From: an uncultured Planctomycetales bacterium
Lineage (GTDB): Bacteria; Planctomycetota; Phycisphaerae; UBA1845; PWPN01
Direction of reading: 5' to 3'
NCBI GenBank assembly: GCA_964653435.1
Contig: CAZZFA010000004.1
Location: 22,492-86,491 of the forward strand
DNA length: 64,000 bases
In this document: piece by piece, positions 1 to 16,079 of the stretch
How positions within the stretch are numbered: position 1 is the stretch's first letter
Layout of the letters: the number at the start of each line of letters is the position of its first letter
Position numbers and translations under genes: made by a program
The notes under the pieces: model-generated
Told to the model about the DNA's origin: nothing
The model's database searches: none
What the model saw: only the letters and a program-made list of their open reading frames with translations

Positions 1-2849
1 ACCGGGCTGTCGTGCCCCGGCAGAGCACCCGCGGACACGCCTGTCTGTGCGTTCCAGAGTTTCAGGGTGCCGTCGCGGGATGCGCTCGCCGCGATACGGC
101 CGTCTTGGGAGATGGCGACCGCAGCAACCCAGTGCTCATGGGCGCCAACTCTCCGTACGCCCTTGCCTCCTCGTACGTCCCATACGTGTATCATCCCATC
201 GTCGGTTCCGGCGAGCACCCGCTCCCCGTTGGCATTCATTGTCAGTACCGTGACGTCGTCACGGTGGCCACCGAGCCGGGAGATCTGACTTTCCTTTTCC
301 ACATCCCATACGCGTATCGGTTCCACGCCAGCCGCGGAGACAACGCGATTCCCGTTCTCGCTGATGGCAAGCGCCGACATGGTGGTCCGGTGCCCAGGCA
401 GAGTATGGAGTGTCTTGCGTCGTCGGAGATCCCAGACCTCAAGCCCAGAATGGGAGGGCGCAATGAGCGCACGCTCCCCGTCCCCAGAGACGGCGGCAAG
501 CCTCCGTTCGCTGGCCCACCTCAGTAAGATGCGCTGCTCCGAAGGCTTCTTGAGGTCCCATGCCTTGATCAACCATCCCATGTCGCCTTCCCCGGTGAGC
601 GACAGGATGTGCTCAGAGGTAACCAAGAGGGGGACGCTACCCCACTGACCAGTGTGCTCCGCGAAGACATGCAGAGGCATACGACTTCCAACAGCCCACA
701 CCTTCAATTGACGTTCCGAGCTACCCGACACAAGGCCCTCGGTATCTCTGGACGCGGCGACTCCCCAGACAGCCTTGCGACCCGCCATCCATGCTTCGAT
801 TTGCGCAAGACGAGTGAGTTCCCACACTCTCACAGCGCCGTCGGCGGATCCTGAAACAGCACGTTGGTTATCGCGACACGCCGCTAAGCAGAGGGTTTTC
901 TCGCGACCCGTTATCAGCGTTCCTAGCAGCCAGCCGCTCTCGACATCCCACACCCGCAGAGTCTTGTCATCTGCGGCTGATACGATGCGCCCTCCATCAC
1001 GGCACAGGGCCAACGCTCTTACTTGCCCCGAATGGGCGGCGAACGTTCGAACCGGGTACTCGCCCGGTGCAACCAGACTCGGTGTGAGTGGTCGTAGCCA
1101 CGTTTCTGTCTGGGACCGGCTCGTCTGAGTCAGCATCGTGTGCAAGTCGTGAGCTTTCAGGCCGGACAGACGCCCCATCAGTTGCGGTGCGAGTTGGGTC
1201 GGATCATGACGAAGCGCGGGCAGGGAGGCCCGCAAAGCCGCACGGACATGTTGAAGGGTCTCATCATCGGGTAGCCAGGCATAATCCGCGATCACATCCG
1301 CGGGATCACTCTCGCTAAGCCCTGCCCGAAGCCACTCGGGATCAAGCAGAAGGCTGCGGAGGAATAGGCGCTGCTTGGGCACACTCGACGTAGCCGCGTG
1401 CTCCGGCAGGAAGCGCAGATCATAATCACCCGGCAGCGCGTGCCGTTCGCGTTGACGTTCACCCGCCGCCTTCAGCTTTCGTTGGGCGGCTGTGACGATC
1501 AGGGCATGGGAGCCAGTAACCTCGGCATGGTGGTCTGCTTCCAGGAAGTCACGCAGGGCAACATGGTAAAGGCGGTAACGCTTGGTGTCGTTGTCAGATT
1601 GCTCCGACCGGGCGAACCCTGCGTCCGTCCACATGGCGAGGCTGTTCTGAACCTCTTTGAGCGGGAGACCCAGCCATTCCGCGATCGCTTTGGCCGCCAC
1701 AGATACCCGCGCGGCCGCCAGCGCACAGACAACCTTTGCATGAATATCGTCGAAGGCCGTGTTGTCCTCTTGACGAAGCTCGGTCCAGCGACGGCGGTAG
1801 TAATCAGAGAGACCATCGGGCAAGTCATCAGTGCGAGGATACGCACCAGCGTCGTTTGCGATCGTCTCAATCACATGCTTCAAATACAAGAGATTGCCCC
1901 GGCTCTTGGACCATAGCAGGTCGCTGCATCGCCGCCCATCGAGGTGGAGGCCCCGCATCCACTCCTTCAAGTGGCTCCCGAAAATGTACTTCTCTATGAT
2001 GGTGCGTACATCTTCTTCGTGTTCTGGGGTACCAGAATCCAGGTCGCAGCGCCACGCGTATCCCGTGCCGCGCTCGATCCATTCCGAGTCTTGAGCAGTG
2101 AGGACAAAGAACACGTTGCGAGGAAGGTGCCGAGGTAGAACCCGTTCCACGAAGACTTGTCGGTGCGGGCCTGCAAACAGCACATCCGACGAGTCTATCG
2201 CGATGATGAGGCGTTCCTGATCAAGCTGTTCAAGCGCTCCATGCGCCACCCGGCTCAGGAAGCTGCCGTCGTCGGCGAAACCAACGGGAAGGTCCTCGAT
2301 TGGTAACCGACCCAATTCAATCAATCGAGCACAGATGTTGCCGATGCATGCTCGGCGAGCATCTGGTCCCCATTCTGGTACGTCGAAGTGGTAAACAGGC
2401 AGTTCCCATCGTCGCACCAGTTCGGCAAGAAGAGCCGACTTGCCTGTACCTGGGGGGCCCGTGATCAGCACGTAGCCCGAAGGGACCTCCGGGCTTCGGA
2501 CGAAGGCCTCGATGCCACGAATCATGGATTCCCGGGCACCTTCAGCCCAGGACTCGCGAGATTCGTCGAGGTAGTTCGTGAACGAAAGGCAGTGCTGACA
2601 AAGCCTTGCCGACAGCACATACTCCGTGGCTTGCGCATCTTGCGTAAGCTCGTCGACATCGCATTCGAGGGCGTGTGCAAGCTTCTCGATCAGCTGCTGG
2701 TTCTTGAGTTCGCCCGCCAGGATATCCTGGAGGGACCTGACTGACATGCCTGCCTTGGCTGCGAGTTGCTTGCGTGATAGTCCCGAGTCGTTGCACCTCT
2801 TAATGCACACGTCAGGATTCACCTTCCCCTTGGGCACGGGCTTGCGCAT
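1..2849 (-). CDS. HTH (XRE-like) / P-loop STAND-type NTPase / WD40-repeat protein; C-terminus runs off the left window edge
   Basis: Absent from the ORF track because there is no stop in the window. Hand translation of the minus strand from ATG 2849-2847 gives MRKPVPKGKVNPDVCIKRCNDSGLSRKQLAAKAGMSVRSLQDILAG (HTH). Walker A GPPGTGKS lies at 2436-2459 (aa 131-138). WD40 signatures occur toward the 3' end (GTDDGMIHVWD at 177-209; also DDKTLRVWD, DGAVRVWE). The frame was spot-checked open at 1340-1400 (HAATSSVPKQRLFLRSL). Confidence 0.85.
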   Translation of the reverse strand, partial: MRKPVPKGKVNPDVCIKRCNDSGLSRKQLAAKAGMSVRSLQDILAGELKNQQLIEKLAHALECDVDELTQDAQATEYVLSARLCQHCLSFTNYLDESRESWAEGARESMIRGIEAFVRSPEVPSGYVLITGPPGTGKSALLAELVRRWELPVYHFDVPEWGPDARRACIGNICARLIELGRLPIEDLPVGFADDGSFLSRVAHGALEQLDQERLIIAIDSSDVLFAGPHRQVFVERVLPRHLPRNVFFVLTAQDSEWIERGTGYAWRCDLDSGTPEHEEDVRTIIEKYIFGSHLKEWMRGLHLDGRRCSDLLWSKSRGNLLYLKHVIETIANDAGAYPRTDDLPDGLSDYYRRRWTELRQEDNTAFDDIHAKVVCALAAARVSVAAKAIAEWLGLPLKEVQNSLAMWTDAGFARSEQSDNDTKRYRLYHVALRDFLEADHHAEVTGSHALIVTAAQRKLKAAGERQRERHALPGDYDLRFLPEHAATSSVPKQRLFLRSLLLDPEWLRAGLSESDPADVIADYAWLPDDETLQHVRAALRASLPALRHDPTQLAPQLMGRLSGLKAHDLHTMLTQTSRSQTETWLRPLTPSLVAPGEYPVRTFAAHSGQVRALALCRDGGRIVSAADDKTLRVWDVESGWLLGTLITGREKTLCLAACRDNQRAVSGSADGAVRVWELTRLAQIEAWMAGRKAVWGVAASRDTEGLVSGSSERQLKVWAVGSRMPLHVFAEHTGQWGSVPLLVTSEHILSLTGEGDMGWLIKAWDLKKPSEQRILLRWASERRLAAVSGDGERALIAPSHSGLEVWDLRRRKTLHTLPGHRTTMSALAISENGNRVVSAAGVEPIRVWDVEKESQISRLGGHRDDVTVLTMNANGERVLAGTDDGMIHVWDVRGGKGVRRVGAHEHWVAAVAISQDGRIAASASRDGTLKLWNAQTGVSAGALPGHDSP

Positions 2850-2889
2850 TTCTGCACTCTTTTCACAAGTTTGCACTCAATTCTGCACT
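2850..2889. promoter_or_regulatory. Triple direct repeat TTCTGCACT / TTTGCACT / TTCTGCACT (operator-like) abutting the start codon of the HTH-STAND gene
   Basis: Copies read directly at 2850-2858, 2870-2877 and 2881-2889. They sit in the divergent intergenic region between the HTH-STAND gene and the 3079 operon. Confidence 0.4.
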
Positions 2890-3078
2890 ACTAAGACCCG
2901 CGAACCAGGCCGCGAAGCCACTTAAGCTGATGGCATCCGCGGCAGCAATCGGGCCGCTCCTGACCGGATCGTCATACGGTCGGCAGGATAGCTCAGGAGG
3001 TCGAGCACCGCAATCGGAGCGGCCTTGCCTTGGGCGTACGAGGCGGCTCGCTTGAAACGGGACTCGGGATGATCGGAT

Positions 3079-15920: not shown

Positions 15921-16007
15921 AAGGGCAGAAAATGGCCGGTATTGGACGGTTTATGGCAACAAAATGCTGAACGACAAAGAATGCAAAGCCTTTAAAATAA
16001 AAGACTT

Positions 16008-16079
16008 GCGGGCGTAATTCAGTGGTAGAATGCCAGCTTCCCAAGCTGGACGTCGTGGGTTCGAATCCCATCGCCCGCT
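16008..16079 (+). tRNA. tRNA-Gly (anticodon CCC)
   Basis: Hand-folded cloverleaf: acceptor GCGGGCG/CGCCCGC, D stem ATTC/GAAT, anticodon stem CCAGC/GCTGG with loop TTCCCAA, T arm GTGGG-TTCGAAT-CCCAT, discriminator T. It is 72 nt with no encoded CCA. Confidence 0.95.

Follow-up and report, generated by a model that had tools for sequence, protein, structure and literature searches.

What kind of element lies at the left end of this stretch of DNA, where an integrase gene adjoins a tRNA gene in a planctomycete chromosome? The stretch analysed here (the window) comprises 64,000 nucleotides of contig CAZZFA010000004.1 from an uncultured Planctomycetales bacterium. The original prediction named five open reading frames (ORFs) in its first 16 kb, encoding a tyrosine integrase, an excisionase-type helix-turn-helix (HTH) protein, a Prim-Pol, a replication-relaxation-type protein and a soluble FtsK/VirD4-like ATPase, and read them, together with a set of small spread-like genes, as the layout of an actinomycete integrative and conjugative element (AICE), unusual in what looked like a PVC-type genome. 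All five ORFs lie where they had been placed, and positions 1 to ~16000 are the integrase-proximal end of a larger foreign island in a chromosome of the Phycisphaerae (Planctomycetota). The locus belongs, nevertheless, to a separate family with copies in many phyla. We propose, at a probability of roughly 0.45 and hence tentatively, that it is an integrative island replicated by an archaeo-eukaryotic primase (AEP) and carrying a cytoplasmic, ATPase-centred machine, that it is a partly decayed copy of this widespread family, and that it is not an AICE.

The locus is best approached through its ATPase, a soluble P-loop protein of 837 amino acids (8269..10782, plus strand) in which a conserved N-terminal region of ~400 residues is followed by an NTPase domain of the VirB4/TrwB/HerA type. 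Its profile matches are marginal (TrwB_AAD_bind, DUF87, VirB4, TraD); a Pfam scan at E <= 0.1 returned only TrwB_AAD_bind (21 bits), DUF87 and T4SS-DNA_transf, and FtsK_SpoIIIE (PF01580) was not matched. The Walker A lysine K423 and the Walker B pair D661-E662 are invariant in the family and intact here. Foldseek comparison of an AF2 model (pLDDT 81.8) retrieved TrwK/VirB4 of R388 at an E value of 1e-12 over ~870 alignment columns and HerA at 4e-12, and TrwB could be fitted to the C-terminal ~430 residues with a TM-score of 0.62 and an rmsd of about 5.5 Å. The protein is also matched by the HerA and mad8 models of PADLOC, by HerA defence complexes in the PDB and by phrog_5156 (8e-29), and no transmembrane (TM) segment is predicted in it. 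The fold matches and the invariant Walker motifs therefore place this enzyme in the VirB4/VirD4/HerA branch and not with FtsK, so that the soluble ATPase of the original prediction stands while its FtsK affinity does not. Hundreds of full-length relatives of ~820 amino acids, 35-66% identical, accompany it in the databases.

The small genes around the ATPase, which had been likened to spread genes, are not Spd-like: five ORFs of the window share a new soluble, all-helical domain of ~190 amino acids, which we call P200. Three stand-alone paralogues lie in a row upstream of the ATPase on the plus strand, namely copy a (5580..6146, 188 amino acids; BLASTP 1e-35 to 1e-40 to ~193-residue proteins of the related loci L002, L004 and L006), copy b (6194..6856, 220 amino acids; 43% identical to its orthologue in locus L176) and copy c (6863..7447, 194 amino acids), and a fourth, copy e (10769..11377, plus strand, 202 amino acids), follows directly downstream of the ATPase, a position held by a P200 gene in 38 of 57 related loci. 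The AF2 model of copy c (pLDDT 81.6, pTM 0.72) is entirely helical, and Foldseek searches of PDB and BFVD gave it no meaningful match (lowest E value ~0.4). A P200 profile run against 1.84 billion sequences gathered 1,652 cluster representatives (50% identity clusters), nearly all of them either ~190-residue proteins or ~555-residue proteins with P200 at the C-terminus. The helical model, the empty structure searches and the restriction to two architectures led us to set aside both a jelly-roll capsid and a known adaptor as identities for P200.

The fifth P200 domain forms the C-terminal 190 residues of a fusion to a Lon-like protein (4246..5562, plus strand). In the family these fusions, of ~555-560 residues, keep the Ser and Lys of a Lon-like protease in 'GfSaD' and 'paKl' motifs (alignment of 53 fusions), and the relative in locus L032 reaches Lon_C at 23 bits against a cutoff of 21.1. 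The window protein, at 438 amino acids, has suffered an internal deletion of ~116 residues (~110 alignment columns), with loss of the conserved catalytic Lys, and its match to L176 falls into two pieces.

Downstream of the ATPase and copy e lies the AEP primase-polymerase gene (11457..12578, plus strand), with the DxD, sxH and hLP motifs present. Its product matches PF22548 (AEP-TOTE) at 2e-32, PrimPol_Msp at 1e-18, the PADLOC PrimPol model at 4e-27 and NF040561, and it aligns, motifs included, with the solved structure of a CRISPR-associated primase-polymerase (CAPP; PDB 7nqd/7nqf, 1e-8), which assigns it to the CAPP/AEP-TOTE clade. It is 46-63% identical to its relatives; its final ~40 residues are unconserved and overlap the next gene, and judged by its motifs it is predicted to be catalytically intact. 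The primase-polymerase identity anticipated for this ORF is borne out by these matches, but the family is not the Prim-Pol of PF09250, which gave no match, PF22548 being the sole Pfam match.

The ATPase, P200 and AEP genes travel together across a wide range of hosts. A pattern scan with one genome per species found relatives of the ATPase in at least 127 species genomes from 11 or more phylum-level groups, including Planctomycetota (Phycisphaerae, Pirellulales, Brocadiia), Thermodesulfobacteriota, Bacteroidales, Ignavibacteria, Verrucomicrobiota, Lentisphaerae, Pontiella (Kiritimatiellota), Zixibacteria, Sumerlaeota, Hydrogenedentes and one gammaproteobacterium. From ORF clustering of ~50 loci and the precomputed Pfam annotation of L002-L006, a conserved gene order emerges that runs (F795) - F171 - F218 - WD40 - Ser/Thr kinase with tetratricopeptide repeats (TPR) - F386 - F232, and continues Lon-P200 - two to three P200 - ATPase - P200 - AEP - (class II ribonucleotide reductase, RNR) - (small HTH) - integrase - tRNA or tmRNA. 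The first five genes of this order form a module that can be inverted. F795 is a HerA/DUF87-like ATPase of ~950 amino acids that matches HerA structures at the profile level, so that both ATPases of the array have HerA profile matches. In 49 of 57 loci the AEP gene follows the ATPase gene at a distance of no more than 3 kb. Of 49 loci, 37 have Lon-P200 and 39 have F386; of 38, 17 have the kinase and 22 the WD40 protein; and the RNR occurs in 9 of 36. Neither F171, F218, F232 nor F386 has a consistent Pfam match among 56 members, and no TM segments are predicted in most members of every core family. No classical type IV secretion system (T4SS) genes were found in the window, nor in the 10-kb flanks of the ATPase gene in L002-L006 and L176, the six related loci with precomputed Pfam annotation; the original prediction had likewise seen none in the element. 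Several metagenome-assembled genomes carry two or three copies of the family, and a limited literature search found no paper describing this gene set. A plasmid origin was considered and dismissed, the matches being only distant ones to DUF87 or coupling proteins.

The window copy is a member of this family, with flanking P200 genes, an upstream (damaged) Lon-P200 and a downstream AEP all present; its order is Lon-P200, three P200, ATPase, P200, AEP, a small gene termed f16, the excisionase and the integrase. F232 is missing; the kinase, the WD40 protein of the family (WD647) and F795 are not in the window, where an unrelated HTH-NTPase-WD40 gene takes the divergent position. F386, of ~386 amino acids when intact, is represented by an ORF of 164 amino acids (3755..4249, plus strand) homologous to its C-terminal half (BLASTP to nine F386 members, residues ~219-370 of 385), likely a split or decayed gene; the position of the N-terminal half is taken by an ORF of 228 amino acids (3079..3765, plus strand) for which no homologue was found, either by Pfam or in the related loci. 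To these are added two genes peculiar to this copy or accessory in the family, a Cys/His-rich ORF at 7466-7972 and a Replic_Relax gene. Taken together, the window copy appears from its sequence to be partly decayed. Exact look-ups of the window proteins led to one 5-kb contig only, from an independent read set (Logan contig L001), which carries the identical sequence.

The gene order of the closest relative for which context is available (L176 10001-17810; ATPase 57% identical) runs ATPase - P200 - AEP - Lon-P200 - three P200, with the blocks swapped relative to the window and with two integrases, an HTH_17 protein and a ThiF-family gene on the other side; modules are therefore evidently shuffled within the family. 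Other neighbours include type IIG methyltransferase-like genes and a STAND-WD40 protein. At the metagenome locus L092 (914-8549), two Eco57I/MmeI-type N6-methyltransferases of ~1,090 amino acids (type IIG or BREX PglX-like) stand directly upstream of F795, a neighbourhood that fits a defence-island setting. The class II (B12-type) RNR with a TSCPD domain was seen between AEP and integrase at L006 14318-16618, L032 14106-16442, L048 14159-16438 and others (Ribonuc_red_lgC, 414 bits); it is absent from the window copy. On chromosome OY759599.1 of a member of the Desulfatiglandales, two 12.4-kb copies of the integrase-proximal module that are 99.99% identical (L071 3009-15392 and L072 2378-15392) lie ~97 kb apart, each finishing in the same 27 bp of a tmRNA 3' end. 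The right end of this pair is thus fixed in the tmRNA, no left repeat was found, and the two may be large elements in tandem; the L072 copy has an extra insertion of ~630 bp of the IS200/IS605 type.

That the island is integrative is suggested by its right-hand end. The minus-strand ORF at 14580..15920 (446 amino acids) encodes a divergent protein that matches no Pfam or NCBIfam model; it matches phrog_216 (3e-8), aligns with the integrases of related loci at an hhalign probability of 97.3% over 324 columns, and has a homologue in L008 (25% identical) that itself matches PF00589 at 1.7e-12. It is thus a predicted tyrosine recombinase recognisable by remote homology alone, so that the integrase proposed for this ORF is upheld by these three comparisons and not by any direct Pfam or NCBIfam match. 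Its catalytic motifs can be aligned, with the K in 'RGKTG', the box II 'RH', 'GH' and Y406, although the column of the first catalytic arginine (Arg-I) reads G/N ('GFGN') in the window protein and in L008 alike. Beside it, the plus-strand gene at 14247..14600 encodes an HTH_17 DNA-binding protein of the excisionase family (PF12728 1.6e-10; TIGR01764 'excise' 6e-9), as had been expected. The tRNA-Gly(CCC) gene follows at 16008..16079 on the plus strand with its 5' end facing the element, and an Rfam scan of 1-18000 matched only this tRNA. Among the related loci, ~22 end at a tRNA or tmRNA gene of many different tRNA species, and in 17 of these the 3' end faces the integrase, which is the usual arrangement. 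The 5' side is also occupied in L006, L008, L075 and L076, of which L008 shares the integrase type and orientation of the window. The window integrase and its sole close homologue (L008 17522-18616, minus strand) both show 'GFGN(D/K)D' in place of the 'TGLR' of tyrosine recombinases, and both lie on the minus strand adjoining the 5' end of a plus-strand tRNA. In L026, where the tRNA-Gly(CCC) is identical in sequence, a related element lies 3' of it; the ORF adjoining that tRNA, which we considered as a relative of the window integrase, proved unrelated to it.

Composition and synteny bear out that this is foreign, integrase-bearing DNA beside a tRNA gene in a genome of the PVC group, as first supposed. 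The relatives of the host transketolase are from Phycisphaerae, and the noted drop in GC within the element is real (0.58-0.63 over 1-16000 against 0.64-0.72 in the rest of the window; averages of ~0.60 to the left of tRNA-Gly and ~0.67 to its right). The composition breaks in an AT-rich spacer (15921..16007, GC ~0.44) between the integrase start and the tRNA 5' end. To the right of the tRNA, 16080..16747 is a stretch of 668 bp with host-like GC (in 100-nt steps) and no convincing gene, and it is missing at the corresponding place in the closest relative of the host. That relative (L171; transketolase 94% identical) is collinear with the window from 16748 rightward at 89.9% identity (blastn), and the whole of 1-16747 is missing at the syntenic place, the non-syntenic block ending at 16747/16748; L171 carries radical-SAM/SPASM genes next to gatC in place of tRNA-Gly and the island (breakpoint L171 9202), and L174 has gatA at the same breakpoint (L174 5402). 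Synteny is broken exactly downstream of gatC in three close relatives (L171, L172 and L174), and tRNA-Gly is absent there in all of them. The comparison, which had been suggested as a search for an empty site, thus shows that the block is missing from relatives, but what it shows is non-synteny and not a clean empty attB, and because these relatives have no tRNA-Gly at this place the right boundary is bracketed only between 15921 and 16747. The left end of the island is beyond the window; coordinate 1 is the window edge and not an element boundary, and a minus-strand gene runs past it.

How does such an element compare with those already described? By definition, AICEs combine a Tra protein of the FtsK_SpoIIIE family (PF01580), a RepSA, RepAM (PF12307) or PF09250 replication protein and an integrase of PF00589 or PF07508 (Ghinet et al. 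2011, PMC3218068); small Spd proteins and a host among the Actinomycetales are further marks. The window element resembles AICEs such as pSAM2, SLP1 and pMEA300 in its association with a tRNA, its integrase and excisionase, the AEP-type Prim-Pol of some of them, its one large hexameric-type ATPase, its lack of a T4SS and its ~10-20 kb of mostly small genes. Unlike AICEs, it gives no direct match to any of the defining Pfam models, its ATPase is of the VirB4/HerA/TrwB type, it belongs with P200 paralogues, a kinase, WD40 and Lon proteins and a second ATPase, and the hosts are non-mycelial, the window host being one of the Phycisphaerae. The AEP may be analogous in function to the Rep of an AICE because it is an AEP, though not of the defining family, and the AICE resemblance as a whole is superficial. 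T4SS-type integrative and conjugative elements have a VirB4 ATPase, a relaxase and a mating pore in the membrane; the ATPase here is of VirB4-like fold, but no TM-containing conserved partner and no T4SS Pfam family accompanies it here (window; flanks of L002-L006 and L176). The HerA anti-phage complexes (Sir2-HerA, DUF4297-HerA) and MADS are alike in that a HerA-fold ATPase works with tethered effectors, and differ in that Sir2, DUF4297, a methylase and a specificity subunit are lacking here, the partners being P200, Lon-P200, F386 and F232. An identity with MADS was rejected, since only mad1 and mad8 were matched, at the level of domains (ATPase fold, HTH), and the gene content is different (10.1101/2023.03.30.534895). 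With CAPP and TOTE the window shares the clade of its AEP, whereas no CRISPR-Cas genes are nearby, unlike CAPP. TOTE is defined by TPR-OB and TBP proteins (PMC12458937), and that identity too was rejected: no TPR-OB (cold-shock) or TBP Pfam family was found in the window proteins or in 56 members of F171, F218, F232 and F386, in which very divergent domains could escape detection.

To account for these features, we propose that the integrase and excisionase would excise the element and that the AEP would prime its replication. The ATPase may form a hexameric ring, as its structural relatives do, and serve as motor or scaffold; P200 proteins, whose genes flank that of the ATPase, would bind this ring and tether partners to it; in the fusion, the P200 domain would bring a Lon-like Ser-Lys protease to the complex. 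The result would be a cytoplasmic, NTP-driven complex of ATPase, P200 and Lon-P200, joined in relatives by F386, F232, the second HerA-like ATPase, the TPR kinase and the WD40 protein, with the kinase, TPR, WD40 and NTPase components as possible sensors or switches. Its role would most likely be a conflict function, either defence or the keeping of the element in the cell, and not that of a trans-envelope DNA pore. We favour such a cytoplasmic role because the whole set is soluble and its domain types are typical of conflict systems. This last step is the weakest of the proposal.

Several observations speak against the proposal or weaken it. The function suggested for the array would follow from domain types and context only, and for P200, F171, F218, F232 and F386 no relatives could be recognised. 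The tight linkage of AEP and ATPase would fit a helicase or replication role as well. P200 is no promiscuous adaptor, occurring solely on its own or in fusion with Lon. In the Thermus element ICEth1, DNA donation is driven by a HerA-like ATPase that has no TM segments (PMC5365140), so that their lack does not exclude transfer. As to integration, the recombinase, judged by its sequence, may be inactive for want of a canonical Arg-I; the element stands 5' of tRNA-Gly, contrary to the usual arrangement; and insertion at the tRNA-Gly itself is putative, the closest relative having no tRNA-Gly there. Searches for an att direct repeat found none, either within the window or among the related loci, 23 tRNA- or tmRNA-adjacent ones included, the loci having been viewed with 10-kb flanks that are shorter than the elements; a direct repeat of the tRNA-Gly region in particular was sought within the window and not found, and it could lie at the left end, outside.

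The alternatives differ in what they make of the ATPase. If the element were self-transmissible and moved as double-stranded DNA, the ATPase would be its single pump, either FtsK-like as in an AICE or HerA-like as in Thermus thermophilus ICEth1, an element of ~15 kb in a tRNA gene that lacks relaxase and T4SS and for which the hexameric FtsK/HerA-superfamily ATPase TdtA is key to DNA donation ('transjugation'; PMC5365140). The integrase, the excisionase, the AEP, the T4SS-free surroundings and a model that resembles DNA translocases all suit such a pump. We consider it improbable, however, given the missing FtsK_SpoIIIE match, a conserved set without TM segment or membrane partner, small genes that are soluble helical paralogues, and a family spread over many non-mycelial phyla. 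As to the ICEth1 version, the gene for TdtA (~64 kDa) shares its operon with those for a NurA nuclease, a methylase and a type IIG restriction enzyme (PMC5365140), whereas here no NurA-like nuclease accompanies the ATPase, an AEP is present and the partner set is quite different, with a kinase, WD40 and Lon proteins that transfer leaves unexplained. Somewhat less improbable, though still unlikely, is an integrative mobilizable element (IME), in which a MOB_C protein would nick an oriT and the VirD4/TrwB-like ATPase would couple the DNA to a foreign T4SS. It was said originally that the locus has no MOB relaxase; this has to be revised, because a survey of mobilizable elements lists PF13814 (Replic_Relax) under the relaxase superfamily MobC (Table 1 of PMC5357655), so that a candidate relaxase is present. 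The gene in question lies on the minus strand at 12409..13428, the ATG at 13416 being the start first given and the ORF extending to 13428, and its replication-relaxation character is confirmed at 1.1e-15 (58.7 bits against a cutoff of 25.3). The product combines a winged HTH with Replic_Relax, a family that has been placed in the PD-(D/E)XK fold and has an N-terminal HTH (PMC3424549), matches phrog_9381 ('replication initiation by nicking') and keeps all columns that are invariant across seven family copies, including PD...E-x-D, as a candidate relaxase or nickase of the MOB_C type. The integrase and excisionase, the TrwB_AAD_bind and TraD matches of the ATPase, the fit of TrwB to its C-terminal half and the absence of mating-pore genes are likewise what IMEs with a MOB_C relaxase and a coupling protein display. 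Against this, the Replic_Relax gene is an occasional accessory, present in 6 of 83 related loci. Since all of them have the ATPase, what it does throughout the family cannot depend on Replic_Relax. Moreover, the 837-residue ATPase is soluble, lacks the N-terminal membrane anchor of a coupling protein, is over its full length more VirB4-like, and sits with its conserved 400-residue N-terminus in a multi-gene array, no convincing oriT-like repeat was found near the relaxase gene, and the genome has no known T4SS. Should the window copy still move between cells, its MOB_C gene would make mobilisation by the transfer apparatus of another element the likeliest route.

Whether the copy still moves is the point of a further alternative, that of a decayed, immobile remnant, a fossil island in the course of losing its integrase and cargo. 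The split F386, the shortened Lon-P200 without its Lys, the absence from the window of F232, the kinase, WD647 and F795, the integrase without Arg-I and the missing att repeat would all be accounted for, but we think this unlikely as well, since the ATPase, the AEP, four of the five P200 genes, Replic_Relax, excisionase and integrase are full-length with their family-invariant residues, and a second, independent read set yielded an identical copy. The 'GFGN' of the integrase, found in L008 too, speaks for a conserved variant rather than a lesion. ATPases of the FtsK/HerA family package DNA in some membrane-containing viruses, and one may ask whether the island is a provirus of an unrecognised kind, whose ATPase packages the genome and whose proteins without relatives form the particle. 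A class II RNR, an AEP and an integrase beside a tRNA are phage-like, as is the match of the ATPase to phrog_5156. Yet a search of 50,697 phage records gave no match and IMG/VR only four distant ones, P200 is all helical without a viral structural match, the searches detected no family of capsid, portal, tail or lysis proteins, and the best structural matches of the ATPase are VirB4, HerA and TrwB and not viral packaging ATPases, all of which makes a provirus highly improbable.

An integrative, AEP-replicating island with a cytoplasmic machine is thus the reading we prefer. As such, an island beside a tRNA is ordinary; what is out of the ordinary is the strictly ordered set of 10-15 soluble proteins, most of them without recognisable relatives. 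It is conceivable, and we put this forward with more reserve than the proposal above, that the two soluble VirB4/HerA-like ATPases, three to five P200 paralogues, Lon-P200, F386, F232, the TPR kinase, the WD40 protein, the CAPP-clade AEP and sometimes the RNR make up an undescribed machine, either a new DNA-synthesising immune system or an envelope-independent apparatus by which the element replicates and leaves the cell. A defence system of this kind would be a new class, with a HerA/VirB4 ATPase and a primase-polymerase at its base; if the array serves the spread of the element instead, it would be a third example of T4SS-free transfer, after AICEs and Thermus ICEth1. The function is testable, since two cultured hosts, Desulfocarbo indianensis SCBM and Pontiella sulfatireligans F21, carry the family.

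The remaining genes of the island can be described briefly. Divergent to the plus-strand operon, 1..2876 on the minus strand is one long frame, as judged from codon-position GC periodicity and six-frame translation, with island-like GC (0.58-0.62); it is cut by the window edge and encodes at least 958 amino acids of an HTH_3 - NACHT/STAND-like P-loop NTPase - WD40 protein (WD40 8.9e-39; HTH_3 1e-7; AAA_16 and NACHT weak) for which BLAST gave no match to either of the families F795 and WD647 from the related loci. The Cys/His-rich ORF (7466..7972, plus strand, 168 amino acids), which lies between the P200 genes and the ATPase and contains four 'GCPGH' motifs, is copy-specific, having no homologue in any related locus and a counterpart only in the identical contig L001, where the gene call is 120 amino acids long. 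By contrast, f16 (13704..14081, plus strand, 125 amino acids) is a small conserved protein that several relatives likewise encode between AEP and integrase module, with a BLASTP match at 5e-28 to L002 14302-14580 and six matches in related loci.

Two features elsewhere in the window may be mentioned. A single plus-strand ORF of 4,669 amino acids (44606-58615), with Ig/PKD-like repeats, a long YD/RHS-repeat region and a distinct C-terminal tail, looks from its sequence like a giant Rhs-type polymorphic toxin gene, and it coincides with a dip in GC at 44-45 kb and a strong AT skew at 55-56 kb. The tRNA-Arg(CCT) gene on the minus strand (59792-59867) adjoins DNA whose GC falls to 0.63 at 58-59 kb, where the giant gene has its 3' end.

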